From Minisyncoccota bacterium (GTDB lineage: Bacteria; Patescibacteriota; Minisyncoccia; Phycocordibacterales; UBA918), in assembly GCA_021734905.1 (NCBI GenBank), contig JAIPIB010000001.1:2230-66229 (forward strand): DNA of 64,000 nucleotides, read 5' to 3'. Of the stretch, positions 5,881-57,147 are shown one piece after another; position 1 is the stretch's first letter, and the number at the start of each line of letters is the position of its first letter. A program made the position numbers and the translations under genes. Below the pieces are notes generated by a model. It did no database searches and was not told the origin of the DNA. It was given only the letters and a program-made list of their open reading frames with translations.

Positions 5881-5987
5881 TGCCAGCGTATTTTTGAATG
5901 GTATACTGTGCTACCTAATTATTAACAATGCGGGGTAAGGCGAGTTGGAAACGAGACTCTCTGAACTCATAATAAAAACTAAGCAGC

Positions 5988-7022
5988 ATGTCGATAACAA
6001 AGAATGCACCACCAGTTGATATCAATAAGCGACGAGCCATAAATGGTGAGGACGCGGATGTTATTCAGCTCTATCCAATGAAGCACGCGTGGGCTTGGGA
6101 GTATTATAATGCCGCAAATGCCAATCACTGGCTTCCGACTGAAATTAGCATGCAGCTTGATATTGAGCAGTGGAAATCAGCCACTGTATTAACGACAGAT
6201 GAACGTCACGCATTTGAAACTGTTCTTGGTTTCTTTACTACAGCCGACTCAATTGCAGCAAACAATATAACTATTGCCAACTACCGGCATATCACAAGTC
6301 CAGAAATTCGAATGTATCTATTACGCCAGGCATATGAAGAGGCCATTCACACCCATGCATATCAATATATCGTTGAGTCACTAGCAATGGATGAGTCAAA
6401 GATTTTCAATATGTATCGTGAACGAGACGCAATCTATAATAAAGCGAGTTTTATTTTGTCATTTAATGAGGGTATTTTTGACCCAACGTTTAAAACAGGG
6501 ACATTTGAAAATGACCAAAAATATCTTGAGAATCTCTGTGTCTTCTCACTCATTCTTGAGGGGATATTCTTTTACAGTTCGTTTGCGGTGATGTTTGGTT
6601 TTCAACGGCAGCATAAATTAACTGGTTCTGCAGAACAAATTCAATACATCATGCGCGATGAATCGATGCACCTTAACTTTGGATGTCAGCTTATTAACAC
6701 AATCAGGGAGGAACAACCAGAACTTTGGACGAAAGAATTTCAAGATAAAATCGTCGGATACATCAGAGAAGCAGCTCGTCTTGAATATACCTACGCACAA
6801 GAAGTATTTCCTGCAGGAATATTTGGTATGAATGCTGCTGGATTTAAACAGTATATTGAACATATTGCTGATCGTCGGTTGGAGCGAGTGGGACTTCCAG
6901 AACAATTTGGTGTCACAAACCCGTTCCCATGGATGAGTGAAGCAATCGACCTTCCGAAAGAAAAAAACTTCTTTGAAACAAGGGTGACTGAGTACAAAAC
7001 AGGTGGTGCACTCAATTGGTGA
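5988..7022 (+). CDS. nrdB: ribonucleoside-diphosphate reductase class I beta subunit (di-iron/tyrosyl radical R2)
   Basis: R2 iron-ligand motifs EEAIHTHAY and DESMHLNFG, ferritin-like helix pattern; immediately downstream of nrdA. Confidence 0.9.
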   Translation: MSITKNAPPVDINKRRAINGEDADVIQLYPMKHAWAWEYYNAANANHWLPTEISMQLDIEQWKSATVLTTDERHAFETVLGFFTTADSIAANNITIANYRHITSPEIRMYLLRQAYEEAIHTHAYQYIVESLAMDESKIFNMYRERDAIYNKASFILSFNEGIFDPTFKTGTFENDQKYLENLCVFSLILEGIFFYSSFAVMFGFQRQHKLTGSAEQIQYIMRDESMHLNFGCQLINTIREEQPELWTKEFQDKIVGYIREAARLEYTYAQEVFPAGIFGMNAAGFKQYIEHIADRRLERVGLPEQFGVTNPFPWMSEAIDLPKEKNFFETRVTEYKTGGALNW

Positions 7023-7040
7023 CCAAGAATCAACGAGCAG

Positions 7041-7107
7041 CGCGGCTATGATTATTGAGTCTGTCGCAAAATTCTATTCATAATGAATTTTGTGACGGAC
7101 AGAATCC
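7041..7107 (+). repeat. REP-like element, variant with TATTCATAATG loop (stem gtcgcaaaattc / gaattttgtgac with a G-U pair on + strand)
   Basis: Hairpin with conserved loop shared with copies at 34211-34279, 47800-47866, 19905-19950, 37390-37425; 5' box gctatgattattgag resembles the agcgactatattttctgag box of other copies. Confidence 0.6.
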
Positions 7108-7365: not shown

Positions 7366-8298
7366 ATGCGCTTATTAATTCTTATAGGCATACTTATCGC
7401 TACTCTCTTCGGGAGCGGTTTTTGGTATGCTTATATTGATATGGACTGTAAGCTGCCAGTTAAATACAAAATTGGAAATATTGATGAGCGATTTGGTACT
7501 GATGTTAATGAATTAAAAAAGATTGTCGCAAAAGCAGAGACGGTGTGGGAGTCTGCGTTGCAGACAGAATTGTTTGCGTATGATGAAAATGCCTCATTAT
7601 CTATAAATCTCGTTTTTGATGAACGACAAGAGGCCTCTGATAGAGAGGCAGAGTTAAGAGATGATCTACAGATAAAAGAAGGAATGAGTGAAAGTGTTGC
7701 AGAGCAATATACTGAATTGGTTGGTGAATATAGAGCCCTTAAGAAGTCATATGAATTACGTGTTGGAGAATATGAAGAAAAACTTAGTAAACATAATATC
7801 CAGGTTACTGATTGGAATAATAAAGGAGGAGCCCCACAAGATGTTGTCGACAAGTTAGGTGAAGTGCAGAAAGCACTTACGGAGGAACAAAAATCAATTG
7901 AGGGACTTGCAAAGAAGCTTAATCAGTTTGTTGTGCAACTTAATGCAATTGGAGTGAGGGGGAATTCGCTTATTACTGACTACAATGCTGTGGTCAATAA
8001 ATATAATGAACATTTCAAAGAGGTCCAAGAATTTACACAGGGCGATTACACTGGGAAAGCGATCGATGTGTATCAGTTTAATTCTGAAGATGAATTGACG
8101 ATTGTGCTCGCTCATGAATTCGGGCACGCCCTCGCACTTGGACATGTACAAAACGAAAAATCAATCATGTACTTTCAGATGAACGCTCAGGAAGTGTTGG
8201 AAGGGTTGAGTGCTGAGGATATGAACGAATTTACACAAGTGTGTAGTCAAAGAACTCTTGTTCAGCAGATTGCCGTGTGGTTAAAAAGCATTTTGTAA
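7366..8298 (+). CDS. matrixin-like zinc metalloprotease (peptidase M10 family), N-terminal TM anchor
   Basis: HEFGHALALGH = HExxHxxGxxH zinc-binding consensus followed by Met-turn region (SIMYF); N-terminal hydrophobic helix. Confidence 0.7.
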   Translation: MRLLILIGILIATLFGSGFWYAYIDMDCKLPVKYKIGNIDERFGTDVNELKKIVAKAETVWESALQTELFAYDENASLSINLVFDERQEASDREAELRDDLQIKEGMSESVAEQYTELVGEYRALKKSYELRVGEYEEKLSKHNIQVTDWNNKGGAPQDVVDKLGEVQKALTEEQKSIEGLAKKLNQFVVQLNAIGVRGNSLITDYNAVVNKYNEHFKEVQEFTQGDYTGKAIDVYQFNSEDELTIVLAHEFGHALALGHVQNEKSIMYFQMNAQEVLEGLSAEDMNEFTQVCSQRTLVQQIAVWLKSIL

Positions 8299-8370
8299 GG
8301 TCTTTGCTCTTTTGAATGGGATAGAGTACGATTATTCTCAAGTTAATAATATATAAATTATCAAAAAAGT

Positions 8371-9165
8371 ATGTTCCAAGAATCATCAATAAGGAAGGTC
8401 GGAGTTGCTATTGGAGGGATGATCATCATTGCTCTTGCTGCGTATACGTATTACACAATCAAACAGTCGCAGTACATGTTTGGTGGGCCAGTTACGATTT
8501 CTGTCGTTGGAAAGGGTGAAGTGTTCGCAACTCCAGATATTGCAACATTTAGTTTTTCTGTTGTTGCAAAAGAAGATGAGGCAGTAACTGCGCAAAATAA
8601 GGTATCCGAGACATCAGATACAATCTTGGCATATCTTGAGGAAAATGGTGTTGAAGAGAAAGATGTTAAAACAGAGTATTACAATCTCACACCTCGGTAT
8701 GAATATCCTGAAACAGTCTGTACCCAGTGGGGTTGTCCACCGCGAAGCGGAGAACCAAAACTTATCGGATATGAAGTAATGCAAAATATTTCTGTAAAAA
8801 TTCGAGATACGAGCAAGGCAGGTGAAATCATTTCAGCTGTAGGAAGTCGTGGAGCGCTTAATGTGAGCGGACTTTCATTCACTATTGATGACGAGGAGAT
8901 TCTTGTTGCTGAGGCGCGAGAAAAGGCGATTAATGATGCACAAGAAAAGGGTCGCGTTCTTGCTAAGAGTCTTAATGCACATATCGTTAGAATGACTGGA
9001 TATTGGGAAGAGCAAGGAGGATATCCAATGCAGTACGGTATTGGTGGTGGGGTTAATATGATGAAAGCAGAGGACTCGTCAGAAATGATGGTTCGACCAG
9101 CTGCTTTGCCATCAGGTGAAAATAAGATTTCAGCACAAGTTAACATTTCGTACGAAATTAAATGA
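8371..9165 (+). CDS. SIMPL/DUF541 domain periplasmic protein (BP26/Omp28-like)
   Basis: N-terminal TM/signal, sequence pattern typical of SIMPL domain proteins; assignment from overall similarity recalled, not computed. Confidence 0.55.
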   Translation: MFQESSIRKVGVAIGGMIIIALAAYTYYTIKQSQYMFGGPVTISVVGKGEVFATPDIATFSFSVVAKEDEAVTAQNKVSETSDTILAYLEENGVEEKDVKTEYYNLTPRYEYPETVCTQWGCPPRSGEPKLIGYEVMQNISVKIRDTSKAGEIISAVGSRGALNVSGLSFTIDDEEILVAEAREKAINDAQEKGRVLAKSLNAHIVRMTGYWEEQGGYPMQYGIGGGVNMMKAEDSSEMMVRPAALPSGENKISAQVNISYEIK

Positions 9166-9238: not shown

Positions 9239-9259
9239 GTAGTCGTGCAGAAGTAACAT

Positions 9260-9295
9260 AAAAACCCCCAAGACCATAAGGCTCGGGGGTTTTTG
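9260..9295 (+). terminator. intrinsic terminator after SIMPL gene (ccccc..ggggg stem + T-run)
   Basis: aaaaacccccaagaccataaggctcgggggttttt seen in sequence. Confidence 0.6.
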
Positions 9296-9305
9296 ATGAG
9301 TGATA

Positions 9306-9333
9306 TTGACATCTGCTATTTAAGGCGTAATAT
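9306..9333 (+). promoter_or_regulatory. sigma70-like promoter upstream of secE (TTGACA-16-TAATAT)
   Basis: ttgaca at 9306-9311, 16-nt spacer, taatat at 9328-9333; followed by small hairpin cgccc-gtg-gggcg + T-run at 9344-9361. Confidence 0.5.
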
Positions 9334-9386
9334 TATATTAAATCGCCCGTGGGGCGTTTTAATTTTGCTAACCTAATTTATATACC

Positions 9387-9569
9387 ATGAGTCAGTTTAT
9401 TAATTACCTTAAGGATACTGTTTCGGAGCTTAAACACGTGTCATGGCCAACAAACAAACAGACAGTTGTGTATACAGCACTCGTTATAGGTATCTCTATC
9501 GCCGTGTCAGTATTTGTCGGACTTTTTGACTTCGGTTTTTCTAAAGGTCTCGACTGGTTTGTTAAGTGA
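9387..9569 (+). CDS. secE: preprotein translocase subunit SecE
   Basis: 60-aa single-TM protein immediately upstream of nusG-rplK, canonical synteny; KDTVSELKHVSWPT..TALVIGISIAVSVFVGLFDF. Confidence 0.75.
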   Translation: MSQFINYLKDTVSELKHVSWPTNKQTVVYTALVIGISIAVSVFVGLFDFGFSKGLDWFVK

Positions 9570-9588
9570 AATAAAGAAACGAGCTTAA

Positions 9589-9650
9589 GCGACTATTCTG
9601 AATTTCCGTCCCGATTTCTTTATTCATAAAAGAAATCGCTGGACGTATCG
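9589..9650 (+). repeat. REP-like element, B-variant with ATTCATAA loop
   Basis: gcgactattctgaatttccgtcccgatttctttattcataaaagaaatcgctggacgtatcg; perfect stem cgatttcttt/aaagaaatcg. Confidence 0.65.
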
Positions 9651-9784
9651 ATTCTATGTAAAATTATTAAATAGAGGATAGCGGGCAGATAGGGCTGGTG
9701 CGTCGTAAAAATGCATTAGGAATAGCATTTTTCGACAGCCAACTTTTTCTAAACTCGTTACACTCGTAAGAAAAACTAAGCAGC

Positions 9785-10330
9785 ATGGCTAAACAACATA
9801 CAGACGGAGAACGACATTGGTATGCAATTCATACATATTCTGGTTATGAAAATGCAGTTGCACGTAACCTACGACAACGTATCGAATCACTTGGAATGGA
9901 AGATAGAATTTTTGAAGTAGTTGTACCAACCGAAAAGAAAATACGCGTGAAGGGAGGGAAGAGAATTACTGAAGAGGAAAGGATTTATCCTGGATACGTG
10001 CTCGTCGATATGGTTGTGACTGATGATTCATGGTATGTCGTACGTAACACTCCGCGCGTTACCGGATTCGTGGGTAGTGGAACACAGCCAGTCCCTCTTC
10101 GAAAAGAAGAACTTGATACCCTCATGAATCGCATGAAAGATGATGCTCCTAAACATCATATAGACCTTTCGATTGATGATGCCATTATGATTGTAGATGG
10201 ACCATTCAAAGAACTCGAAGGTAAGGTAGGTGAAATTGACTCCGAACGAGGAAAGGTGAAGGTACTCGTCTCGATGTTCGGTAGAGAGACTCCTGTTGAG
10301 CTTGATTTCTTGCAAATCAGAAAAATATAA
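9785..10330 (+). CDS. nusG: transcription termination/antitermination factor NusG
   Basis: NGN domain start (HWYAIHTYSGYENAV), C-terminal KOW region; secE-nusG-rplK synteny. Confidence 0.9.
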   Translation: MAKQHTDGERHWYAIHTYSGYENAVARNLRQRIESLGMEDRIFEVVVPTEKKIRVKGGKRITEEERIYPGYVLVDMVVTDDSWYVVRNTPRVTGFVGSGTQPVPLRKEELDTLMNRMKDDAPKHHIDLSIDDAIMIVDGPFKELEGKVGEIDSERGKVKVLVSMFGRETPVELDFLQIRKI

Positions 10331-10506
10331 AGTTCGGCCATTTTCTCTAAGAGAAAGAGAAGACAGTCTTGCAAACCTGCATTTTCTCTAGTACGATACG
10401 CGGGCTTCTAGAGACGTTCGGTTATGGAACGAATGGCTCAAAATAAAGATATAGTTTAATCTACCGAAGACAGTTTACTGTGTTTCACTCATAATAAAAT
10501 CTAGAC

Positions 10507-10929
10507 ATGGCAAAAAAATTAATTAAAAAAATCAAAGTTCAGGCAGTTGGTGGAAAGGCGACACCTGCTCCACCTCTCGGTCCCGTTCTTGGACAAGCAG
10601 GAATCAACATTGGTGAGTTTGTGAACCAATTTAATGAAAAGACTCGAGAACGAATGGGAGAAGTGGTTCCTGTTGAAATCAATGTATATGACGATCGAAG
10701 TTTTGATTTCATTACAAAGACATCACCGGCCTCTCGACTCATCCTTAAGAAAATTGGAAAGGAGAAGGCGTCAGGAAAAAATCTCACATCAAAAACTGGT
10801 GATATCACACGAGCACAGGTTCGTGAAATAGCAGAAGAAAAGATGCAAGACCTGAGCGCAAATGATATTGAGGCAGCAATGAAGATTATTGAAGGTACAT
10901 GCAGGTCAATGGGGGTCAATGTAATATAA
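10507..10929 (+). CDS. rplK: 50S ribosomal protein L11
   Basis: [46 protein letters not shown] is canonical L11; NOT followed by rplA. Confidence 0.9.
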
Positions 10930-11040
10930 AATTACATTGACCGAGGTTGTGAGTAGTTTGAGTTTACGAAAACTACTGTACAACCTGAACTGCCCATGTA
11001 ATGGGTCAATGTTGTTGAGTAATTAACATATTCATACTCA

Positions 11041-11081
11041 GACACTAAAAAAGACGGGTGATCCCCGTCTTTTTTAGTGTC
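11041..11081. terminator. bidirectional intrinsic terminator (18-bp perfect arms) between convergent rplK and folA
   Basis: gacactaaaaaagacggg-tgat-ccccgtcttttttagtgtc; A-run/T-run on both sides. Confidence 0.7.
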
Positions 11082-11083
11082 TA

Positions 11084-13071: not shown

Positions 13072-13602
13072 TCAAACGGGGAATTCACCCGCTTCGTACC
13101 GAGTTGCAAACTCGGCTGCCCGCACCTTGTTCTTTTCACGATCTTTCGGATCTTTGAAGACAGGGATCTTCACTTCGCCGGTACCGTTCGGTATCCAGTA
13201 ATTCCAGTGTAGGTGAGGGACAGTGCCGGCGTTATCATTCATGGGGCCGAAACGCACGTGCAGATTCCCACCTTTGCCTAGCGAGTATTTTCCCTCAGTA
13301 CCTTCAATCCACTGGATAACGCGGAAGAAATCCAGCCACGCCTCTTCGGGGAGTTCTTCGAGGAAACGTACGTGCCACTTGCACACGATGACGAGTTGAA
13401 CCATGAGCGTTTTGCGCGGATATGGATTTTCCCAGACCATCCAGCTTTCATCCTCATAGAGGATGGTGTTGGTTTTGGTATCAACATTGCAGAATGGACA
13501 GGCTTCGGATTCAAAGCGTTTCCGCATTTCGAAGTATTGCTCGTAGTCTCTGCATCCTTCTAGGCAAAAGAGTTCTTCATCGGTGAGAACATGTTTTTTC
13601 AT
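13072..13602 (-). CDS. HIT-superfamily protein, divergent (motif HLHWN, GalT-like branch?)
   Basis: CPFC zinc-knuckle then ..VPHLHWNYWIP where third His of HxHxH is replaced; paralog of adjacent HIT gene. Confidence 0.5.
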   Translation of the reverse strand: MKKHVLTDEELFCLEGCRDYEQYFEMRKRFESEACPFCNVDTKTNTILYEDESWMVWENPYPRKTLMVQLVIVCKWHVRFLEELPEEAWLDFFRVIQWIEGTEGKYSLGKGGNLHVRFGPMNDNAGTVPHLHWNYWIPNGTGEVKIPVFKDPKDREKNKVRAAEFATRYEAGEFPV

Positions 13603-13690
13603 CAGGGATTCCTCCAGAGAATTTGAAACAAAAAAAGATCAGGGAAGACCTGATCATCTTTATATATTATAACATTATTCTGATCGAAAA

Positions 13691-19783: not shown

Positions 19784-19800
19784 AATGAGCAAAGGAATAA

Positions 19801-19858
19801 AGTGACTATTGCGAATTTCTGTCTCAGTTTTCTATTCCTGATGAAAACTGCTAGACGC
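19801..19858 (+). repeat. REP-like element, B-variant
   Basis: gtgactattgcgaatttctgtctcagttttctattcctgatgaaaactgctagacg; stem cagttttc/gaaaactg. Confidence 0.6.
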
Positions 19859-19972: not shown

Positions 19973-20030
19973 TAAGCGACTATTGCGAATTTTTATCGTT
20001 CATCATTAATAGTGCGTATTACCGGAAATC
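19973..20030 (+). repeat. REP-like element, partial (5' box only)
   Basis: gcgactattgcgaatttttatcgttcatcattaatagtgcg. Confidence 0.45.
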
Positions 20031-20105
20031 AATTCTTGCAGGTTTTGGCGCTCTACGGTAAAGTAGTTTTGGAATTCACGACATGGTCGTGGAAACAACA
20101 AGGAG

Positions 20106-33362: not shown

Positions 33363-33495
33363 TATTGTATAGTTGAAGTAGTGGAACATTACAAAAGATA
33401 GATGAGATGAGTGTCGGAGCTTAGTTTGTCAAGAAAAAGTATTTCAGGATAACAGAGTTTTTCTCACTCGTTTCACTCGTAATAAAAACATAAGT

Positions 33496-33939
33496 ATGTA
33501 CCTTAACAAAGCAATGATTTTCGGAAATTTGACCCGTGATCCAGAACTCAAAGCACTTCCAAGCGGAATTCAAGTATGCTCATTTAGTCTAGCGACGAAT
33601 CGTGTCTATAAAGATCGTGATGGTAAGCGAGCAGAGCAAACTGATTATCATAATGTCGTTGTTTTTGGTCGACAGGCTGAAACAAGCGCACAGTATCTCA
33701 AGAAGGGGGCTAGCGCATATATAGAAGGACGTCTCCAAACACGGAGTTGGGATGCTGAAGGGACAAAACACTACAGAACCGAAATTATTGCTGATCGAGT
33801 ACAGTTTGGTCCACGTACTGGAGGTGCTCCAAGTAGCGAGACACAACAACAGGGAAATGCAAACAACGCAGCGCCTGCGGCGGGGAATGCACCTGAATAT
33901 CCAGAAGAAGACATTAATCCTGAAGACATCCCGTTCTAG
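33496..33939 (+). CDS. ssb: single-stranded DNA-binding protein
   Basis: OB-fold SSB N-terminus, Gly/Asn/Ala-rich linker, C-terminal DIPF. Confidence 0.9.
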   Translation: MYLNKAMIFGNLTRDPELKALPSGIQVCSFSLATNRVYKDRDGKRAEQTDYHNVVVFGRQAETSAQYLKKGASAYIEGRLQTRSWDAEGTKHYRTEIIADRVQFGPRTGGAPSSETQQQGNANNAAPAAGNAPEYPEEDINPEDIPF

Positions 33940-34195: not shown

Positions 34196-34210
34196 CCAGA
34201 AAATAAAGAG

Positions 34211-34279
34211 CATAGCGACTATATTTTCTGAGTCTGTCATAAAATTCTATTCATTATGAATTTTAGGACGAACAGACTC
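34211..34279 (+). repeat. REP-like element (5' box agcgactatattttctgag + hairpin with TATTCATTATG loop)
   Basis: outer stem gagtctgt/acagactc, inner aaaattc/gaatttt; near-identical architecture to 47800-47866. Confidence 0.65.
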
Positions 34280-36252: not shown

Positions 36253-37347
36253 TTATACCACTTCCTTCAATGATTTTTTTACGAGCTTCAGTACTTCATT
36301 CATGAGTTTTGCATCCCCACGAAGTGTCGTCCTTGCTGCGTCGTATCCTCTTCCGAGTTTCACTTCTGTACTAGCGTCTCCACCAGGAGGGAGGTATGTG
36401 TACGAAGATCCCGATTTTTTTATAAAGCCAAATTTTTCTCCAAGAGCGAGAAGCTCTCCTTCTCGACTAATTCCTTCGTTATAGATAAGGTCGAATTCAG
36501 TTGTCTTGAAAGGCGCAGCAACTTTATTTTTAACTACCTTTACACGATGACGACCTCCGACTACCTCGTCGCCCTTTTTGATTTGAGCTATTCGTCGAAT
36601 GTCTAGACGAACGGATGTGTAAAATTTAAGTGCCTTTCCTCCGGGTGTTGTTTCTGGATTCCCAAACATCACACCAATTTGCATACGTATTTGGTTGATG
36701 AAAATAACAATAGTTTTTGATTTCGCAACGATTGAAGTAAGTTTTCGAAGAGCCTGACTCATGAGTCGAGCCTGTTTTCCAACATGATGTGCACCCATCT
36801 CACCTTCAATTTCATCACGAGGAGTAAGCGCAGCAACTGAGTCAATGACAATTATGTCAATTTTACCGGAACGAACAAGCGATTCAACAATTTCTAGAGC
36901 TTGTTCGCCGTTGTCGGGTTGTGAGATGAGGAGTTCATCAAGCTTCACACCGAGATTTTGTGTGTATATAGGATCCATTGCATGTTCAGCATCAATAAAT
37001 GCACAGATACCACCAAGTTTTTGTGCCTCAGCAATTGCATGAAGAGAGAGGGTGGTTTTTCCTGAAGATTCAGGTCCATATATCTCAATAATTCGACCTC
37101 GCGGGAAGCCGCCAATACCGAGAGCCTCATCAAGACCTATGGATCCAGTCGAGACAGCATCAACGTCTACTTTTCGTGTGCTACCAAGCGTCATGATTGC
37201 CTCGTCTCCAAATTTTGTCTTAATGCTCCTTAATGTCTCTGCAATACCAGCCATGCCTTCCTTTACAGCATCGTCAGGACTCATATTTTTCGAAACTTCT
37301 TCTTTGGGTAAAACTTTTGGCTTTAATTCTTTCTTTTTTGCTGGCAT
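36253..37347 (-). CDS. recA: recombinase RecA
   Basis: Walker [12 protein letters not shown]1/L2 loop regions, full-length RecA. Confidence 0.95.
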
Positions 37348-37360
37348 GCTTAGATTTTGT

Positions 37361-37562
37361 TACGAACGCAGTGAGTTAGAAAATCTTAGCTGTCGGAAAA
37401 TACTATTCATAATGTATTTTAACGACGAACGAAGTCAAACTACCACTTCACTTGTTCTTGATAATACACTGATAATTATACAGTACGAACGCAGTGAGTT
37501 AGAAAATCTTAGCTGTCGGAAAATACTATTCATAATGTATTTTAACGACGAACGAAGTCAAA
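37361..37562. repeat. two ~80-bp direct repeats (37361-37440, 37484-37562) in recA upstream region; each contains TATTCATAATG hairpin and a segment homologous to rplL leader
   Basis: units identical over ~79 nt; reverse complement reads ..cagctaagattttctaactcactgcgttcgtaacaaaatctaagcATG (recA start), cf. 48518-48575. Confidence 0.75.
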
Positions 37563-37993: not shown

Positions 37994-40162
37994 TTAAACC
38001 TCGTCTTCAGACTCTGAATCTCGAGCACTGTCGATGACTAATCGAGGCCGTGAACCATCTGCAGGGCCAATAACACCACGTTCTTCAAGTACATCCATGA
38101 GTCGTGCGGCGCGTGAGTAGCCGAGGCGGAGTTTTCGCTGAAGGTATGATGTGGATGCTTTTCCAGCTTCAAGTACAGCAAGTCGTGCATCCTCGTAGAG
38201 TTCATCATCATCCTCATCATCACCGATACTTGAAGCAAATATAGAGTCCGAATCGGTCTTGTCGCCAGATGGATCAAGATTGATGGTGTCGAGCTCTTGG
38301 ATGGACTCCTGATCCTTTAGATAGCTCACGACACGCTTCACTTCATCAATGGTCACAAAGGCAGATTGTAAGCGCATTGGTTTTGGACTTTCAGCTGAAA
38401 GGAAGAGCATGTCACCTTGCCCAAGAAGTTTTTCTGCACCGCTTTGGTCAAGGATAGTACGAGAATCAATTTGTGACGCTACTTGGAGTGCAATACGAGT
38501 AGGGACATTGGCCTTAATGAGGCCTGTGATGACGTTCACAGACGGTCGCTGTGTAGAAAGAATGAGGTGAATTCCCACAGCACGACTCATTTGTGCGAGG
38601 CGCACAATACACGCTTCAAGTTCTTTTGGATATGTAGACATGAGGTCTGCAAGTTCATCAATGATGATGACAATGTACGGTAGTGGTTCTGGAAGAGCGT
38701 CACGTTCTTCGTCTGGAGATCCTTTTTCCTCGAAGGCACGTTTTGCTGGATGGTAGATTGTTTCGTGGTAGGTCGCGATATTTTGGACACGTTCTTTTCC
38801 AAGAATATCAAGTCGTCGTTCCATTTCTTTCATTGACCACTTGAGTGCGACGATTACTTTCTTAGCATCAATAATGACGGGAGTAAGGAGGTGCGGAATT
38901 CCATTGTAGAGGGTGAGTTCAATACGTTTTGGATCAACCATAATGAAACGAAGTTGGTCTGGTGAGTTACGGAAGAGAAGTGATATGACGACGTTGTGAA
39001 TCGCAACAGATTTTCCAGATCCGGTCGTACCAGCAATCAGTCCGTGTGGCATGCGTGCAATGTCTGCGAATTGTGCTTCGCCGGTAATATTTTTTCCAAG
39101 CGCAGTAAGGAGTGGTTTCGGTGAGTCAGTATATTCTGGGGAAGAGAAGAGTGACGCGAGTCCGAGTGTCTGCTTTTGTTTATTAGGCACCTCGATACCA
39201 ACAAGTGATTTTCCAGGAATTGGCGCTTCGATACGAATTGGACTTGAAGCAAGGGCGTATTCGAGATTCGTTTGAAGACCGACAATTTTTTCAAGCTTAA
39301 CGCCTTCTGCGGGCTTTATGGCGTATCTTGTGACCGACGAGCCAATAGTTACCGCGTCCATCTCAACATCAATGTTAAATTTCTTTAACGTCCGTTTAAT
39401 GGTGTTCGAGTTTGCTTTTACGTCACCAACATCAGGTTTCCCCTTGTCTTTATGTAAAAGAGAGAGTGGGGGTGCGGCATATGTCCCTCGGAAGCTTGAA
39501 ACAACAAACTCAGCCCCAGTTGCGCGACTAAGAATCTTCTCAGCAAGAGATTTCTTTTTGGGAGCAGCTTCATCAGCTGATTCAGCTTCCTCATTTTCCT
39601 GTTCGGATTCCTCGGAGTCTGTTGCGGGGAGGTTAACAATAGGTTCAGTGTCTTCGAGGTCCTCGGAATCTTTTCTTTGGAAGAGATGAAGGAAATTTGT
39701 GTTGAATGTAAGGAAGAGACCAACCATAAATAGTGCTACGAGGATGATTCCTGTAACAACACCTCCGAAGAGACTCGTGAGAGGTCGAAATACAATGGTT
39801 CCGAGAGCACCACCTTCTGAAAATGACAACTCAAGAAGAGCGAGAGCTGCGAGAAAGGCAAGAGAGATTCCTACTATTTTAGAACCACTGACACGGTTGT
39901 CTTCTCGAGGCTTTAAAAATACATAGACGAGAAGAGAACAGACAATTGGCGCAAGGACAAACCCATACCCAAAGAGGTAGTAAAGTGCATCATGTGTCAT
40001 CTCTCCTGCAATACCCGCATACCCGAGTGATGAAAAGATAAAGAAAATAGCAAGGACGACAAAGAAAATAGCAACAATTGCTTGTTTCGTGTGAGGGGAA
40101 AGATCGTCAAAAAATGAACCTTGTATTTGTGAAGCTGAATTTTGTTTGCGCCGCTTAGCCAT
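37994..40162 (-). CDS. ftsK: DNA translocase FtsK/SpoIIIE
   Basis: N-terminal TM domain, acidic linker, Walker A GTTGSGKS, C-terminal gamma wHTH (..SYLQRKLRLGYSRAARLMDVLEERG). Confidence 0.9.
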   Translation of the reverse strand: MAKRRKQNSASQIQGSFFDDLSPHTKQAIVAIFFVVLAIFFIFSSLGYAGIAGEMTHDALYYLFGYGFVLAPIVCSLLVYVFLKPREDNRVSGSKIVGISLAFLAALALLELSFSEGGALGTIVFRPLTSLFGGVVTGIILVALFMVGLFLTFNTNFLHLFQRKDSEDLEDTEPIVNLPATDSEESEQENEEAESADEAAPKKKSLAEKILSRATGAEFVVSSFRGTYAAPPLSLLHKDKGKPDVGDVKANSNTIKRTLKKFNIDVEMDAVTIGSSVTRYAIKPAEGVKLEKIVGLQTNLEYALASSPIRIEAPIPGKSLVGIEVPNKQKQTLGLASLFSSPEYTDSPKPLLTALGKNITGEAQFADIARMPHGLIAGTTGSGKSVAIHNVVISLLFRNSPDQLRFIMVDPKRIELTLYNGIPHLLTPVIIDAKKVIVALKWSMKEMERRLDILGKERVQNIATYHETIYHPAKRAFEEKGSPDEERDALPEPLPYIVIIIDELADLMSTYPKELEACIVRLAQMSRAVGIHLILSTQRPSVNVITGLIKANVPTRIALQVASQIDSRTILDQSGAEKLLGQGDMLFLSAESPKPMRLQSAFVTIDEVKRVVSYLKDQESIQELDTINLDPSGDKTDSDSIFASSIGDDEDDDELYEDARLAVLEAGKASTSYLQRKLRLGYSRAARLMDVLEERGVIGPADGSRPRLVIDSARDSESEDEV

Positions 40163-40441
40163 GCTGAAGTCTAATTCTTATGAATGCAATGAAGTATAAA
40201 ATTTGATCGTCTACGGATAACGATTGTATGCAATTTCTATGAGCAATAGAACTCTAATTCTACTTCATTAATTCTCCTAATAATTTCTTTAGAGTATTTA
40301 GTAATTATACAGTATAGCTGCGGCAAACTATAAAGGTAAACTGTCAAAAAAAGATCATCAAAGACCCCTTTTCATATAAGACAAAAAGGCGTATACTGGT
40401 CTTAAATGTGTCCGATATTATAAAGTCACCTATACGTCATT

Positions 40442-41143: not shown

Positions 41144-41845
41144 AAGACGTATTCTTCAACTATGATGGACACACACTTTTTCCGTGACCTTAATCTTTTA
41201 TATCTGTCTTTGATTATTTCAATTGTCCGATTAGGTTGGGTATAAAAATTGTTCTTCAGGTAAGCGGTAAGAAATACTGATTGTAAGCGTCATAATCACA
41301 TAGAGAGGGGTATGTTAGGTTGACTTTGTTCGCCTAGAAACGTATGCTCTCTATCAGATTTTGTATCTATATATGTGTTACTTATACACATATTCACATA
41401 CAAGATAGGTATACACGATGAACTGTTTTGTATACTATGGTCATATGCGCTTCGCTGCGCCCTTTTTTGAAGAAAGGTTGAGATAATTTTAGAGATTATA
41501 TCAACGCTTTAAAATGAGGGATTGCTTAGAAGAGGTGCGTATTAGCTCTTTGACAACGCGGATGATTTTCATACCGCTACATATAATATGTACGTTCAAA
41601 ACAGATCTCAATCTTCATTAGGTTTTGGTTTGTTTGTATTTCAGAATCACCTTATTCCTCTTTGGTCAGTAAAAGAAAAGTATTTCCAACTGGAACTCGT
41701 AACTATCCTATAGCAGGTGGGGTGTCGACCCAAAAAACACCTCTATAGGCTAGTGATATTGGTGAGCAATTCTTCGACGGGTTGCTCGCAAATAAGAATT
41801 AATTCTTATTATTAGATTAACGTTATTTATACGTAATTCATTATT

Positions 41846-47612: not shown

Positions 47613-47799
47613 AAAAATTCTGGTATAGTGTTCGTCATACAGACTCATGACAGCTGGTCGTATATCGAAAAGGATATACTATAATGAACCGTTTGGTTTG
47701 CCAGCCGAAGTCCCTTCTCTTTTAAGGTTGGGGGTCGAAACTCAAGTCTGTACCACGCATTTGCTTGGTACGTCTGTGTCCAAAAAATAAGAAGCGGAA

Positions 47800-47866
47800 G
47801 CGACTATATTTTTTGAGACCGTCTTGAAATTCTATTTATAATGAATTTCAAGACGTACATACTTTA
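47800..47866 (+). repeat. REP-like element (5' box agcgactatattttttgag + perfect 12-bp hairpin gtcttgaaattc/gaatttcaagac, loop TATTTATAAT) upstream of rplJ
   Basis: seen in sequence. Confidence 0.65.
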
Positions 47867-48493: not shown

Positions 48494-48572
48494 AATTATA
48501 GTCATTTCATTCCTTAATTTCTGGCCACAGCTAAGATTTTCTAATTCGGTGCCCTCATAACAAAATCTAAAC

Positions 48573-49001
48573 ATGACAGATGAAACAACAGTTGCTGCTG
48601 CAGAAGCGGTAGTCGAAGAAGTCGTAGAGGTTCCTGCAGAATTTAAAAAGATTGTAGAAGAGATTGAAAAAATGACTGTTCTTGAGCTTCACTCACTCGT
48701 GAAGGTTCTTGAAAAGAAGTTTGGTGTATCAGCACAAGCCGTTGCGGTTGCTGGACCAGCTGCAGGAGGAGGCGATGCTGCAGAAGAGCAGAGTACATTC
48801 ACTGTAGAACTTACTGAGGCTGGAGCACAGAAGATTGCTGTGATTAAGGCTGTTAAAGAAGTTCTTGGTCTTGGTCTCAAGGAGGCAAAAGACATGGTAG
48901 ATGCAGCACCTTCAGTTGTTAAGGAAGGTCTTAAGAAGGAAGATGCAGATGCTCTCAAGGCAAAGCTTGAAGAAGCTGGAGCAAAAGTTACCTTGAAATA
49001 A
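48573..49001 (+). CDS. rplL: 50S ribosomal protein L7/L12
   Basis: canonical L12 N-terminal dimerisation, Ala/Gly hinge, C-terminal domain ..EAGAKVTLK. Confidence 0.9.
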
Positions 49002-49359: not shown

Positions 49360-50010
49360 TCACAGGTTCGATACAGACGTATACTTGCTTTTGTTGTCAG
49401 TCCACACACAGATGTGCGTGTAACCTATCATTGTGATGGTGATAAGGTTGTGTCCGGCGAACAATGTAACAATTTTCCGACGATTAAGTGGAATGAAGAG
49501 TGGGCTATCATGCAGAACCTTTTGGCTCTTGAGTCTCATGTCGCCATGTCGGATTTCAAACGGCTTCCCGTATGTACTCAAATACGGATGAAAGCCGAGG
49601 GAAATAGGCATCGGGCATTTTTCCTGATTTCTCAACTGTATTGAGTGCACCAAGGTTTTGCCACCTTTTGGGATGGTGATAGCGGTTTTTACCGAATGAT
49701 GCCATGGTTCATAAAACCACATCCTTGATTTTGCCGTACCGCGGGAGAAGCTACCCTTTCTGTTTTTGAAATAATGCTGCCGGATAAGCCCATGCTTGGG
49801 AAGATCCGTTGCTTCGTATATCTTGGCCTGCAATTGCGTGCCAAAAAATGGAGAACATACGAATGCTCCACCTCGAACTTTCGTCACTCCATTGATCTTG
49901 ACTTCATTTTCGGGAAAGATGATACTTTCCATACATCCGAGGGGAGTCCAAGATCGTACGGTACCGTTTCCTGCGACTGCGATGTGTGATCCGTTCATTG
50001 ATTCCTCCAA
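49360..50010 (-). CDS. aldose-1-epimerase-like (glucose-6-phosphate 1-epimerase/YeaD-like) protein
   Basis: RGGAFVCSPFFG resembles YeaD RGGIPICWPWFG; His-rich catalytic pattern (WHHSVK, HPYL). Confidence 0.45.
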   Translation of the reverse strand: MEESMNGSHIAVAGNGTVRSWTPLGCMESIIFPENEVKINGVTKVRGGAFVCSPFFGTQLQAKIYEATDLPKHGLIRQHYFKNRKGSFSRGTAKSRMWFYEPWHHSVKTAITIPKGGKTLVHSIQLRNQEKCPMPISLGFHPYLSTYGKPFEIRHGDMRLKSQKVLHDSPLFIPLNRRKIVTLFAGHNLITITMIGYTHICVWTDNKSKYTSVSNL

Positions 50011-51701: not shown

Positions 51702-51729
51702 TTGACTCTTAAACCGTTTCATATATAAT
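51702..51729 (+). promoter_or_regulatory. strong sigma70-type promoter (TTGACT-16-TATAAT) for the 23S-tRNA-5S operon or a short leader RNA
   Basis: ttgact 51702-51707, tataat 51724-51729. Confidence 0.6.
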
Positions 51730-52465: not shown

Positions 52466-53025
52466 ATTCCTTACAGGAATGTTAAGGGTGTATGGTGGAT
52501 GCCTAGGCTTCAAGAAGCGATGAAGGACGTGATATGGCTGCGATAAGCGTGGGGGAGATGCCAAATAATCGTTATATCCCACGATTTCCGAATGAGGAAA
52601 CTCACCTGCTTACGGCAGGTACCCTTGAATGAGGGAGCGTACCCAGGGAAGTGAAACATCACAGTACCTGGAGGAAAAGAAAGCAAAAAACGGGACTTTC
52701 TTTCTGACTTTTGAACAGCTTGCTGTTCTCCATTGAAGTCAGGAAGAAGGTTCTCGCGATTCCCTTAGTAGCGGCGAGCGAAAAGGGTAGAGCCCAAACC
52801 ATTCGTATTTATATGGATGGGGTTGTAGGGCAGTAGTGTCATTTAGTTGAGAAGAGTTACAAAATGTTGTCATAATAAAACGCGTTGGGAAGCGCGACCC
52901 AAGAAGGTAATAGTCCTGTATATGAAATTTCAACAACTCTTTTGCTACTGTTCCTGAGTAGTTCGGGACATGAATAGCCCGAATGAATCTGGGAGGACTA
53001 ACTCCTAAGGCTAAATATTCTTGAA

Positions 53026-53071
<46 letters not shown>

Positions 53072-53639
53072 GGAGAGGGGAGTGAAATAGATCTGAAACC
53101 ATACATCTACAAGGAGTCGAAGCCCTGCGGGGCGACGGCGTGCCTATTGAAGAATGAGCCGGCGAGTGTATCTTTATTCTTTGTCTAAGTGGTAAACCCA
53201 CGGAGGCGTAGTGAAAGCGAGCGTGAATAGCGCGAATATAGAGTAAGGATACGACCCGAAGCGGGATGAGCTTGCCATGTGCAGGGTGAAGCGAAGGTAA
53301 AACTTCGTGGAGGCCCGAACCGGTTGGCCGTTCAAAACCATCGGATGACATGTGGTAGGGAGTGAAAAGCTAATCGAATTCCGTAATAGCTGGTTCTCTC
53401 CGAAACAGCTTTAGGGTTGGCGTCGTGTGTTCCTCCTGGGGGTAGAGCTCTGGAAGGTCTAAATAGGGAGAAATCTCGTTAGACCTATCAAACTACGAAT
53501 ACCAGGTAGTCACAGCACGGCAGTTAGACTACGGGGGAGAAGCTCCGTTGGTCGAAAGGGAAACAGCCCAGATCGCCAGTTAAGGTCCCAAAATATATGC
53601 TCAGTGCAACTTGAGGAGGTGAGGATTCATAAACAGTCA

Positions 53640-53671
<32 letters not shown>

Positions 53672-54514
53672 GAAAGCGTAACAGCTCACTGATCGAGAGT
53701 CCTTGCGCCGAAGATGATCGGGGCTCAAGCATATTACCGAAACTGCGGATGTCACTTTTCTTCGGAAAAGTGGCGTGGTAGGAGAGCGTTCTGTTCTGCA
53801 ATGAAGCCAAGGTGTAAACCACGGTGGAGCGTACAGAAGTGAGAATGCCGGCACAAGTAACCGCAAGACGGGTGAGAACCCCGTCCGCCGAAATACCGAG
53901 GTTTCCTTCGCTATGCTGATCAGCGAAGGGTTAGTCGGTCCTAAGCCGATCCCGAATGGGGGAGGCGATGGATAGCAGGTTAATATTCCTGCACACTGTT
54001 GCGTTGCGATGGAGGGACGGAGGGTTGTACCCAAAGCATCTTATTGGATTGGTGCTGGAACTATGAGGAGGTGTGGTAGGCAAATCCGCCACACAATACT
54101 CCGAGTAGGGTCTGAACGTAAGGCTTCGGCCGAGCGAATGAGGGGAGCACGCTTCCTAGAAAAACTTCTAAGCATAAACGTAACGGTTCCGTACCGCAAA
54201 CCGACACAGGTGGTAGGGTCGAGAAGACCAAGGCGAACGAGTGAGGGGTCCTTAAGGAACTCGGCAAAAAAGCGGCCGTAACTTCGGGATAAGGCCTGCC
54301 TTTGCCCCTTCGGGGGTTAAAGGCCGCAGCGAAAGATTTCCTGGCAACTGTTTAACAAAAACACAGCTCCCTGCGAACACGTAAGTGGATGTATAGGGGG
54401 TGACGCCTGACCAATGCCGGAAGGTTAAATATGGGGGGTCTTATGTATTTATATGTAAGGCTGGACTATATAAGCCCCGGTCAATGTCAGCGATAACTAT
54501 AATCGTTCTAAGGT

Positions 54515-54712
54515 TCAGCAATTTTTCTTCGGAAAAATTGCTGATAGGACTGGAACGATTATGGGTTAAACATATAACGCCGAACAAGCTACCTTGCATC
54601 CAGAAATGTATGCATAGTCCAAATTGCAACCAACAAGAGACCAAATGTTGCACATCTTAACTATCGAAAGATAAAAGATGAAGATAGAGTCCTTCTGCAA
54701 TAGGAATAGAAG
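54515..54712 (+). other. 198-nt intervening sequence in 23S domain IV between AAGGU and AGCG (E. coli ~L1917-1923 region); degenerate group-I-like mini-intron?
   Basis: Exon sequence contiguous in E. coli; insert preceded by U, ends in G; contains gatgaagatagagtcc nearly identical to S-element segment of the downstream intron; starts with perfect UUCG-type hairpin cagcaattttt-cttcgg-aaaaattgctg. Confidence 0.55.
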
Positions 54713-55279
54713 AGCGCAATTCCTTGTCGGGTAAGTTCCGACGTGCACGAAAGGCGTAATGACTGGGAAACTGTCTCAAGGACCTGCTCGGTGAAAATAC
54801 AATGGGGGTGAAGATGCCCCCTACCTGCAGTTAGACGAAAAGACCCCAGGAGCTTTACTGTAGCTTCGTATTGGGGCTGTTGAATTAATGCGTAGCATAG
54901 AAGGGAGACTTTGAAGCGAGCTTTCGGGTTTCGTGGAGTCGCCAGTGAAATACCTTTCTTTAATTTGGCAGTTCCTAACCTCTTAGAAAAAATCTAAGAG
55001 AGACAGTGCGTGGCAGGCAGTTTTAGTGGGGCGCTACCCTCCTAAAAAGTAACGGAGGGGTCTCAAGGTTGGCTAGGCGCGAATGGAAACCGTGCCGATA
55101 GTGTAATGGCATAAGCCAGCTTGACTGTAAGGCGTCAGTGCCGAACAGATGCGAAAGCAGAGCATAGTGAACCGACGGTACGCTTTAGACGCGGCCGGAG
55201 ATTATCTGACAAAAGTTACCCTGGGGATAACAGGCTAGTCGTGCCCAAGCGTCCATAGCGACGGCACGGTTCGGCACCT

Positions 55280-55646
55280 TAACTTATTTATGGTATTTCA
55301 CTCAGCAATGGGTGTTTATATCAAGTTATAAATACATCGGGGTGCCTAGAGTAGCAATACTCTATAAAAATAAATTGGCTATATGCTGGAACTCCTGAGT
55401 CAAAATTAAGCATACAAGGCCCAAACAGTAATTTGAAAAAATAAGCTGTGTGGCTTGAAAACATTGTATGTTCAGGACAATCAGCAGGGAAGACTTCTAA
55501 GTTATTTAAAATAATATGAAGAACCCTCAGAGACTACACGCCAATCTCCAACTCTAAGTAGAGCTGGATGAAGATATAGTCCGATCCTCGTAGTAATACG
55601 AGTGTATAGTAAAAGTAGATAGAATTTTTACTATACAAAACGACAG
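55280..55646 (+). other. group I self-splicing intron (367 nt, no ORF) in 23S domain V at E. coli L2500-equivalent site
   Basis: Interrupts GGCACCU|CGAUGUCGGCUC; 5' exon ends in U, intron ends in G; candidate IGS gggtgt (55310-55315) pairs with exon gcaccu giving U-G at splice site; conserved Q aatcagcagg (55479-55488), R cctcagagactacacg (55525-55540), S aagatatagtcc (55571-55582). Confidence 0.85.
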
Positions 55647-55676
55647 CGATGTCGGCTCAACTTATCCTGGGGCTGG

Positions 55677-55712
<36 letters not shown>

Positions 55713-55717
55713 AAGTT

Positions 55718-55755
<38 letters not shown>

Positions 55756-56160
55756 CTCTATCTACTGCAGGCGTCGATTCTTGAAGAGATTTGTCCCTAG
55801 TACGAGAGGACCGGGATGAACTGACCTCTGGTCTATCTGCTGTCACGCCAGTGGCACCGCAGAGTAGCTATGTTGGGAATGGATAACTGCTGAAAGCATC
55901 TAAGCAGGAAGCCAACTCTAAGATTAGGAATCATTAAGTCCCCTGAGAGATGATCAGGTTGATAGGCACTAGGTGTAAGCGCAGCAATGTGTGGAGCCGA
56001 GGTGTACTAATTAGACGTAATTCCTGTAGGGAATGCTGTACATCGCCCCAAATGAACAAAATTAACGCACTGTTTTTAATTTTGGACATTTAGGAGTGAA
56101 AAGCTATACAATTTTTTGGAGTATTGTTTTATGTTTGTCGTCGTTTTAGAATATGTGATT

Positions 56161-56232
56161 GAACAAACGAGCGTAGCGACTATTGTGAAATTATGTCCCG
56201 ATTTCTTCTAACAGAGAAGTAATCGCTGGACC
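56161..56232 (+). repeat. REP-like element, B-variant, in 23S-tRNA spacer
   Basis: gagcgtagcgactattgtgaaattatgtcccgatttcttctaacagagaagtaatcgctggacc; ~66/66 identical to 56957-57030 copy. Confidence 0.7.
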
Positions 56233-57030: not shown

Positions 57031-57147
57031 GTGGTTTCATAAGGGGTTGTCGATATCTTGACGGAAGGAACGATATCATATAACCTGAACAGCGACTGAA
57101 AGTCGAATCCGTTCCTAAAAAGAATTTTGAAAATTGAATAATTGAAG

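Follow-up and report, generated by a model that had tools for sequence, protein, structure and literature searches.

P2, a start-proximal hairpin element in modular intergenic cassettes of Patescibacteria

In a 64,000-nucleotide (nt) stretch of the genome of a Minisyncoccota bacterium (contig JAIPIB010000001.1, positions 2,230 to 66,229; hereafter "the window"), several start codons are preceded by nearly identical sequences that belong to an imperfect hairpin of ~41 nt, here named P2. The hairpin stands 0–5 nt from an AUG or from the 5' end of a stable RNA, recurs as the last module of an intergenic cassette, and is classed here as a cis-acting, start-proximal expression element. It is old and widespread and apparently undescribed, as no published description was found in the literature searched. 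The reading that we favor, with a rough probability of 0.4, is that P2 is a 5'-boundary element which delivers a 5' end close to the AUG. Labels such as L001 and L170 denote metagenome or related loci.

The Start-Context Motif and the P2 Hairpin

The first-pass annotation of the window had pointed to near-identical contexts ahead of nrdB, nusG, ssb, rplK, rplL, and recA, and all six sites lie where it had placed them and represent a genuine signal tied to start codons. The motif CTCRTAANAAAA is matched exactly at six places in the window, where 0.22 would be expected, a count reached in none of 100 shuffles, and five of these matches are located 10–15 nt before a start ATG on the coding strand. 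The recA start context is the same motif with one mismatch, and a seventh, diverged copy precedes an FtsK-like gene (ATG at 40162, minus strand). The identities of the six genes were confirmed by Pfam. Upstream of every motif site there is a same-strand gene, separated by a spacer of 107–279 nt, and at all six sites a -10-like hexamer is found at the start of the spacer. The similarity upstream of recA, rplL, and nusG extends over ~45–90 nt, beyond the limits drawn in the first-pass annotation, and nrdB and nusG are equal at 20 of 21 positions from the TAA to the ATG, the sole difference being a degenerate n position.

Alignment of the window copies with those in the relatives L001, L007, and L030 gave a consensus of ~50 nt, (N)TAA-GATTTTCTAA-YTCRN-nnn-NYTCR-TAAnAAAATC-TAA(N'), followed by ATG, in which the first-pass motif is the 3' arm and foot of P2. 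A search pattern taken from this consensus, with the region following the motif left free, matched 120 metagenome stretches, more than 50 of which are clearly the same element and lie on contigs of 31–58% GC. The scan rules out a motif private to one lineage, as had been proposed: the element occurs in dozens of Patescibacteria contigs within this GC range and in a few GC-rich contigs whose genes are unlike those of the Candidate Phyla Radiation (CPR). Phage, plasmid, and viral collections contained no true P2 copies, the same pattern giving only chance matches in the viral set, and none were found in 34 loci from outside the CPR. The Rfam 15 covariance models did not match any of the sites, either at the gathering score or at E values up to 5.

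A covariance model built from P2 copies (R1) gives matches with E values that reach 2.5e-12. The copies in the window, which range from canonical to strongly reduced, are as follows.

5963-5990, plus strand: context of the nrdB start; P2 is reduced to its 3' half (GAACTCATAATAAAAACTAAGCAGC-ATG), with no 5' arm and 3 of 12 pairs
9743-9787, plus strand: nusG P2 hairpin carrying one inserted nt, followed by an 8-nt spacer and the ATG (part seen in the first pass, 9758-9787)
9737-9780, plus strand: covariance-model match to the nusG P2 (30.6 bits, E=1.6e-4)
10483-10509, plus strand: context of the rplK start, with the inner module and 3' half of P2 (TTTCACTCATAATAAAATCTAGAC-ATG), a decayed 5' arm, and 7 of 12 pairs
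33457-33498, plus strand: ssb P2 hairpin and ATG (part seen in the first pass, 33471-33498); 11 of 12 pairs
33459-33487, plus strand: covariance-model match to the ssb P2 (E=1.5e-3)
37345-37390, minus strand: canonical recA P2 hairpin and ATG (covariance model, 63.7 bits, E=4e-12)
37475-37508, minus strand: truncated second P2 copy before recA; 5' arm and inner module joined to TGTATAAT (repeat family D4)
40160-40184, minus strand: diverged P2 3' half before the FtsK-like gene (covariance model, E=2.2)
48530-48575, plus strand: canonical rplL P2 hairpin and ATG (covariance model, 59 bits, E=5e-11)

The nrdB and rplK copies in the window are not detected by R1. The ortholog of the FtsK-like gene in L001 has a canonical P2, and the arms of the ssb copy (GTTTTT/AAAAAC) are a compensatory variant of GATTTT/AAAATC. 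The truncated copy before recA lies within a 123-nt tandem duplication (37361-37562, 79 nt identical), the distal copy of which ends in TGTATAAT at the place of the P2 3' arm.

The pairing of the two arms is evident from the alignment. Standard pairs occupy 86.5% of the cells compared to 76.9% after shuffling, and 97 cells are changed on both sides compared to 39.6 in the shuffled alignments, with none of 500 shuffles reaching the observed value. When the 3' partners were slid by 1–3 columns as a control, just 27–46% of the cells were paired. Within the region left free in the search pattern, covariation is found at pairs 6-28 (T-A, C-G, G-C, and A-T), 11-23, 14-20, and 15-19, the last two being kept in 49 of 50 sequences, and the foot pair -4/+37 covaries as well (G-C, C-G, A-T, and T-A). 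Moreover, the inner pairs differ among copies of the window genome itself (A-T/C-G in recA, G-C/G-C in rplL, and G-C/T-A in nusG), and this variation within one genome points to base pairing rather than to a site co-evolving with a protein. Among the unpaired positions, a tandem UC/UC mismatch and one A·A are invariant, and a C·C is frequent. From loop to foot the hairpin comprises 19 stacked steps, 15 of which are standard pairs.

P2 at Start Codons and Stable RNAs

The distance from the P2 core to the ATG is nearly fixed: 4 nt in 26 copies, 5 nt in 10, 6 nt in five, and 1–8 nt in five others, and the extended stem with its foot pairs goes up to position -1. The core stands ahead of an ATG in at least 34 gene families, and the downstream proteins were checked with Pfam for 30. 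Fourteen of the families are ribosomal proteins (L10, L11, L7/L12, L14, L15, L16, L23, L24, L27, L28, L33, S4, S11, and S18). The others include EF-P, NusA, NusG, RpoB, RpoD, RecA, SSB, NrdB, FtsK, FtsE, and FtsX, as well as ClpP, ATP synthase subunit c, ProRS, ArgG, FolD, Fpg, Dcd, chorismate synthase, and a phosphoribosyltransferase. Distant genomes carry P2 at orthologs of nusG (L201), rplK (L100, L116, and L166), rplL (L198), nrdB (L158), recA (L030 and L018), and ssb (L001), and the association of P2 with these genes is therefore old. L170, L103, L135, and L137 each contain several copies. Overall the element is rare: an unbiased sample of ~0.8 Mb from Paceibacteria recA neighborhoods, with roughly 900 genes, gave six matches; since fewer than 1% of the genes in these loci have P2, it cannot be a general ribosome-binding signal.

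The same element also borders RNAs that are not translated. In L185, the foot of the P2 stem is 1–2 nt from the 5' end of the 5S ribosomal RNA (rRNA), within the 23S-5S spacer, and at eight metagenome loci P2 directly adjoins TACGCC, the conserved 5' sequence of a noncoding RNA (ncRNA). Because P2 directly precedes both the 5S rRNA and a conserved ncRNA, it is not purely translational. The window contains a homolog of this ncRNA, for which Rfam gave no match, and in which a promoter-like sequence takes the exact place that P2 has in the eight loci.

~57619-57300, minus strand: homolog of the P2-adjoined ncRNA, ~320 nt, beginning with TACGCC and kept in several metagenome loci (e.g., L168)
57612-57640, minus strand: M-box-like sequence (see below), TATGTT, 7 nt, and TACGCC, promoter-like, before the ncRNA
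57512-57530, minus strand: inner P2 module (TTCGCTTCGCTCA) in a different outer stem within the ncRNA

The neighboring 5S rRNA of the window (57120-57300) lies between complementary AT-rich sequences (GAATTTTGAAAATTGAA... and ...CTTCAATTTTCAAAAATTC), which resemble a classical processing stem and not P2.

Several known binding sites were compared with P2 and set aside. A LexA/SOS box, prompted by the presence of nrdB, recA, and ssb, does not suit a set made up mostly of ribosomal protein and transcription genes. In a comparison made only by eye, integron attC sites, sigma-28 and sigma-H promoters, and sites for IHF, dif, CtrA, and parS did not fit in spacing or sequence. A likeness of UCGUAACAA to 16S nucleotides 1495–1503 concerns one variant only and was taken as coincidence.

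The Intergenic Cassette Ending in P2

The setting of P2 is clearest in the ribosomal protein gene cluster of L170 (S3 to L5), where every gene examined is separated by spacers of 117–177 nt. A complete spacer runs from the upstream stop codon through an A-rich stretch, the sequence GAGCGNAGCGAC (M-box), TATnnT, and 7–8 nt ending in TCTTAA to the 5' strand of a stem named P1, followed by 20–200 variable nt, the P1 3' strand, GTAA, P2, TAAC, and the ATG. The M-box is a GCGNAGC mini-hairpin with GA on its flanks, and P1 is a GC-rich long-range stem. The same order is repeated in at least 18 cassettes on many contigs and is also found in the window, before nusG and rplJ. In these cassettes TATnnT lies 7–10 nt ahead of the first paired base of P1, and this spacing suggests that the transcript starts at P1, which would give it a stem at its very 5' terminus, with P2 inside the leader. 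Judged by its place downstream of a -10-like site, P2 is probably transcribed in a leader of 80–280 nt. The repeat families D1–D5 of the window are features of this cassette of M-box, hexamer, and hairpin, and its parts in the window are given below.

5899-5907, plus strand: extended -10-like site TGgTATACT at the start of the nrdA-nrdB spacer, ~80 nt before the nrdB ATG
9579-9599, plus strand: M-box and -10 (ACGAGCTTAAGCGAC-TATTCT) opening the secE-nusG cassette, followed by a hairpin at 9608-9644
9701-9738, plus strand: hairpin at the P1 position of nusG (CGTCGTAAAAATGC...GCATTTTTCGACAG), just before the nusG P2
10369-10397, plus strand: promoter-like site TTGCAA-17-TACGAT in the nusG-rplK spacer, seen by eye and missing from the consensus-scan list
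47792-47810, plus strand: M-box and -10 (AAGCGGAAGCGAC-TATATT) opening the rplJ leader, followed by a hairpin
7033-7052, 19795-19823, 19974-19997, and 34207-34225: repeated unit of M-box, TATnnT, ~7 nt, and a covarying hairpin
56169-56186 and 56967-56984: further repeated M-box units (in addition to 9579-9599 and 47792-47810)

The repeated M-box unit is usually located just past a stop codon, and it is also found beside a transfer RNA (tRNA)-like gene and the 5S rRNA, in the rRNA region. The recA counterpart of the P1-position hairpin of nusG (CGTCGTAAAAATGC...GCATTTTTCGACAG) shows a compensatory change. In the case of rplJ, the true start is at 47896, with the conserved N-terminus MAITKAKK, and the longest open reading frame (ORF), starting at 47841, begins within the leader hairpin.

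In sequence, the M-box and the inner P2 module are reverse complements of each other. A long-range pairing between the two showed no excess within cassettes (8.8 pairs compared to 9.05 with shuffled partners), and as they do not covary with each other, each is taken to fold alone.

The sequence and order of the cassette also recall the BoxA/nut system, and P2 might accordingly be a BoxA-like site for NusB/NusE (S10) that loads an antitermination and RNA-chaperone complex onto the leaders of rRNA, ncRNA, and highly expressed genes, or serves feedback repression as at E. coli suhB, a view that we consider very improbable. The 3'-arm sequence GCUCRUAACAAAA agrees with the rrn BoxA (GCUCUUUAACAA) at ~10 of 12 positions with a 1-nt gap, the critical C4 being present; a hairpin (P1) followed by a BoxA-like sequence repeats the rrn order boxB-boxA; and the gene set, which includes nusA, nusG, rpoB, rpoD, many ribosomal proteins, the 5S rRNA, and the ncRNA, is one of translation and transcription together with rRNA. 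BoxA sequences near the start codons of translation genes are already known (10.1101/091223). However, the likeness is limited to a 12-mer, and the match of ~10 of 12 with one gap holds for GCUCRUAACAA in ~45% of the copies, the rest having G, U, or A at BoxA position 10, and TCATAAG and TCATAAT variants are as common as TCGTAAC. BoxA function is independent of a hairpin and of a fixed distance to the AUG, whereas both are conserved in P2, where the site itself is paired. In addition, the window 23S leader has neither P2 nor a clear BoxA, and GCTCTTTAACAA with up to three mismatches gives 96 matches compared to 82 expected.

As a separate observation, the window includes a gene-free stretch of 702 nt (41144-41845) with GCTCTTTGACAA, one mismatch from BoxA, and several hairpins, for which Rfam gave no match.

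The near-symmetry of the cassette raises another alternative, in which it is a palindromic mobile or gene-converting repeat, such as a miniature inverted-repeat transposable element, a repetitive extragenic palindrome, or a "mobile promoter," that has spread between genes and is retained where expression gains. The left arm (M-box, hexamer, TCTTAA, and the P1 5' strand) is approximately the reverse complement of the right arm, P1 sequences are common to cassettes within one genome (GGTGCTGGG in each of L170, L146, and L102), and the same cassette precedes different genes in relatives (rplL in the window and ftsK in L001). The 123-nt tandem duplication at recA, and P2 copies that lie at the tips of repeated long palindromes on a GC-rich contig with guaA, aqpZ, and arsC and beside tRNA 3' ends, also agree with mobility. 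On the other hand, distant orthologs have P2 at the same 4–6 nt from the ATG, which argues against recent mobility, the bias toward housekeeping genes is strong, and the phage, plasmid, and viral collections are without matches. No transposase or target-site duplication was seen, with no dedicated test made for either. On balance, a mobile origin of the cassette seems highly doubtful.

Shine-Dalgarno Sites and Leaderless Signatures in the Host Clade

The closest relatives of the window RecA are Patescibacteria of the Paceibacteria/Parcubacteria type, including metagenome-assembled genomes of Kaiser-, Adler-, and Nomurabacteria. Of the rRNAs, the window encodes the 5S and the 23S, the latter interrupted by a group I intron, but not the 16S, and rplK (10507-11083) has no rplA (uL1) next to it, with rplJ and rplL located 37 kb away. 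The missing rplA beside rplK is consistent with a uL1-lacking subgroup of Parcubacteria. An anti-Shine-Dalgarno (anti-SD) motif has been reported for just 48% of Parcubacteria, and the lineages in which it is missing coincide to a large extent with those lacking uL1 (Tsurumaki et al., 2022; PMC9297842). Helix h26, which contacts the Shine-Dalgarno (SD) helix, stays conserved in Parcubacteria despite this loss, and the paper reporting the loss left unexplained how start codons are then chosen (PMC9297842). A literature search on leaderless translation or conserved start motifs in CPR bacteria returned nothing relevant.

In line with the first-pass annotation, no SD core is located 4–10 nt before the start at any of the six motif sites, and most other genes of the window lack a GGAGG-type SD as well. 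SD-like tetramers at this distance occur in 6% of the window genes and in 6% of 652 genes from 47 related Paceibacteria loci, which equals the background of 6%, and the scarcity is thus clade-wide, in keeping with the anti-SD loss reported for Parcubacteria without uL1 (PMC9297842). The AAGGAG at 20100-20105, which had been singled out as the only clear SD, directly touches the ATG at 20106 and, having no spacer, is poorly placed as an SD. The only well-placed SD-like sequences in the window are elsewhere, before two ORFs (13072-13602 and 49360-49998) that share one upstream sequence.

13600-13615 and 49996-50008, minus strand: TGGAGGAATC, common to the two ORFs, with GGAGGA 7 and 4 nt before the ATG, respectively

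The 652 genes show another regularity. A TAnnnT hexamer ending 5–9 nt before the ATG is present in 33%, compared to ~15% at other offsets, and a positional profile pooling 701 genes (with the ATG as +1) gives T-12 at 0.34, A-11 at 0.46, T-7 at 0.36, and T-1 at 0.52 and is A-rich from -14 to -3. To judge from sequence, the hexamer and this profile are the signature of leaderless transcripts across the clade. The housekeeping promoter consensus appears ordinary, as suggested by the one near-consensus promoter-like site in the window.

51702-51729, plus strand: near-consensus site TTGACT-16-TATAAT, ~740 nt before the 23S rRNA

The 23S rRNA downstream of this site and its ~740-nt leader extends from 52472 to 56030; its group I intron occupies 55328-55603, a second, weak intron-like match is found at 54500-54712, and the 16S rRNA is unlinked.

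The first-pass annotation had read the motif as an A-rich, SD-independent initiation enhancer. Carried over to the hairpin, the 3' arm (UCRUAAnAAAAUCUAAC) would be an SD-independent translation initiation region that the U-rich 5' arm masks or presents, or, in a stronger form, the hairpin would dock on the 30S platform at the seat of the SD duplex; both forms of this reading appear quite unlikely. They draw on the tight AUG spacing, the 20 of 21 positions shared by nrdB and nusG up to the ATG, a gene set in which highly expressed genes predominate, the SD-poor starts of the clade together with their A-rich positions -14 to -3, and the conservation of h26 after loss of the anti-SD in related Parcubacteria (PMC9297842). 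They also draw on copies reduced to the 3' half, whose short leaders follow TATAAT-like -10 hexamers at nrdB and rplK of the window, at recA of L002, and in L006; at these copies a role in the leader is possible, and this much of the enhancer claim may stand. The remainder is not supported, since the motif belongs to a covarying hairpin, of which it is one arm, and the full element also lies ahead of the untranslated 5S rRNA and, at eight loci, of the ncRNA family. Start contexts in Bacteroidota are likewise A-rich and SD-independent. The clade resembles them in its scant use of SD sites and in the enrichment of A from -14 to -3, although P2 is a specific 41-nt sequence and structure at few genes and not a general bias in composition.

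P2 as a Possible Promoter

Leaderless mRNAs in Actinobacteria and Deinococcus-Thermus arise from promoters with a -10 hexamer 6–8 nt before the ATG, and P2 could likewise be a proximal promoter, consisting of the mini-hairpin box, TAAnAA or nAAAAT as the -10, a TCTAAC discriminator, and a start 0–3 nt before the ATG. The products would be leaderless mRNAs and primary transcripts of the 5S rRNA and the ncRNA, and the hairpin would then function in DNA, either as a cruciform or as a mini-hairpin of the template strand. This interpretation seems to us somewhat unlikely. Like these promoters, P2 sets the ATG right behind a fixed module, and the leaderless signature is found throughout the clade, in about one third of genes. 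P2 and the distal M-box/TATnnT share one layout, namely a mini-hairpin box, 1 nt, a TA-hexamer, 7–8 nt ending in TCT(T)AAC, and the start, and a -10-like hexamer occupies the place of P2 at the ncRNA homolog of the window. With the ATG as +1, recA reads TTTCTA-17-CAAAAT-6-ATG, and recA orthologs without a full P2 show TAAGAT or TAAGAA 6–7 nt before the ATG. Finally, the 3' half persists without the hairpin at nrdB and rplK.

The sequence of the hexamers suits this role poorly. P2 is a poor sigma-70 -10, as the -11 A and the -7 T of the known promoters are not found together in either register: TAAnAA has an A at -7 in all copies, and nAAAAT loses the -11 A in 9 of 56 variants, those in which pair 6-28 covaries. 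Position -1 of P2 follows its pairing partner. A simple -10 promoter, as first suggested by the leaderless-looking genes of the window, is weakened by this covariation and by the missing T-7 and A-11. Furthermore, covariation of the outer arms would be pointless in a duplex promoter, the sole near-consensus site of the window, before the 23S rRNA, is ordinary, and a separate -10-like hexamer 80–280 nt upstream, which together with P1 is present in most cassettes, would make a second promoter redundant. In L002 and L006, TATAAT-like hexamers lie just 14–21 nt upstream of the 3' half.

A special case of a promoter acting through folded DNA is suggested by the strand that folds best, which is the template strand. 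GCGNAGC is an unusually stable DNA mini-hairpin known from initiation regions, including the promoters of the phage N4 virion RNA polymerase and the G4 and ssiA priming sites (PMC13037366). In the cassette, GCGAAGC, GCGTAGC, or GCAAAGC with GNA-type loops is read from the top strand at the M-box and from the bottom (template) strand at the inner P2 module, and both of these adjoin -10-like hexamers. The bottom strand of P2 mostly reads GCGAAGC, with the loops GAA (29), AAA (8), GCA (4), GGA (4), and GTA (4). P2 differs from the N4 promoters in having two Watson-Crick pairs and a tandem G·A compared to a stem of 5–7 bp, and in a loop centre 21 nt from the A of the ATG compared to position -11. 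To our knowledge, single-subunit RNA polymerases are not known in these bacteria. An assignment of the strand by wobble pairs was also attempted, and the counts (G·U 14 and A·C 17 overall, 3 and 12 in the core, 3 and 5 in P1) are too few to decide.

P2 as a Proposed 5'-Boundary Element

Any explanation of P2 has to cover the fold, the position at a 5' boundary, the upstream promoter, the exchange of P2 for a -10-like sequence at the ncRNA, and the occurrence in an SD-poor lineage with a leaderless signature. A 5'-boundary element accounts for most of these. In this mechanism, a leader of 80–280 nt that includes P2 would be transcribed from the distal hexamer, P2 would flag where the functional RNA starts, and a conserved factor would read the folded nucleic acid. 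A cut at or near the 3' foot of P2 would then leave an mRNA with the AUG at its 5' end or a few nt from it, a product that would be suited to the leaderless-type, SD-independent initiation apparently used by the rest of the genome. The fallback offered in the first-pass annotation, a shared promoter-proximal or processing site, comes close to this cassette anatomy.

The nearest parallels are RNA processing sites. Like the RNase III hairpins of the T7 early mRNA (R1.1 type), P2 is an imperfect hairpin of ~19 steps with conserved internal loops, located between cistrons, and in its sequence it has the anatomy expected of an RNase III intercistronic hairpin of about two helical turns, including in the L170 ribosomal protein cluster. 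As at the T7 sites and in mitochondrial tRNA punctuation, the downstream RNA would start at the P2 foot. Mitochondrial tRNA punctuation yields leaderless mRNAs for mitoribosomes that have no anti-SD. RNase III, however, cleaves within stems and not at the foot, and P2 departs from the T7 sites in that its sense-strand hairpin is weak, its boundary is at the foot, and cleavage would have to be assumed.

Several points weigh against a 5'-boundary element. The first concerns the strand: folding of the sense strand yields a weak hairpin (0 to -4.1 kcal/mol, z-scores +0.85 to -2.2), while its complement is more stable when folded (-4.2 to -6.2 kcal/mol), with G·A pairs in tandem and a GCGNAGC-type GNA triloop, and core mismatches (A·C 12 compared to G·U 3) do not favor the sense RNA. 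The M-box is upstream of the distal -10-like hexamer, so that it would act on DNA or on the 3' untranslated region of the upstream gene, which hints that the inner P2 module could do the same. The nrdB and rplK copies consist of little more than the 3' half with unchanged spacing to the ATG, and the hairpin is therefore not always required. Both the cut at P2 and the nuclease that would make it are postulated, and the proposed processing would remove P1, a protective 5' stem. Lastly, near-consensus P2 cores occur in contigs of 51–63% GC (L103 at 8128-8527 and 9254-9451, L088, L152, and L160) with genes unlike those of CPR bacteria (guaA, aqpZ, and arsC). There they tip long GC-clamped palindromes or converge on tRNA 3' ends from the opposite strand at a distance of 3–4 nt, and these copies are unexplained by the 5'-boundary model.

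Two further readings, both of which we hold to be rather unlikely, apply to Patescibacteria without an anti-SD. In the first, the cassette before each highly expressed gene, including those within the ribosomal protein cluster, would form a "punctuation" system analogous to mitochondrial tRNA punctuation, in which a conserved factor would recognize the terminal P2 and the AUG would be created or exposed at the very 5' end for leaderless translation. In the second, the P2 helix, 0–5 nt before the AUG, may take the seat of the SD/anti-SD helix, with its 5' arm GAUUUUCUAA replacing the missing 16S tail.

Other Features of the Window

A tRNA match of 118 nt (56566-56683, Rfam 37.7 bits) was uncalled by ARAGORN and probably contains an intron, and other tRNAs were not found in the 64 kb. 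In the divergent start region of two genes there is a 53-nt direct repeat (61486-61538 and 61611-61663), 98% identical and 125 nt apart.

Implications for Start-Codon Choice in Patescibacteria

For the choice of start codons in bacteria without an anti-SD, P2 offers a concrete handle. P2 is also a strong start-site signal for gene callers applied to CPR bacteria, as in the case of rplJ, where it favors the start at 47896 and not that at 47841. The element delimits a candidate high-expression regulon, and the covariance model R1 may be used for genome-wide surveys. Identification of the factor that reads P2 might uncover a novel way of making leaderless mRNAs or a promoter of a new type.

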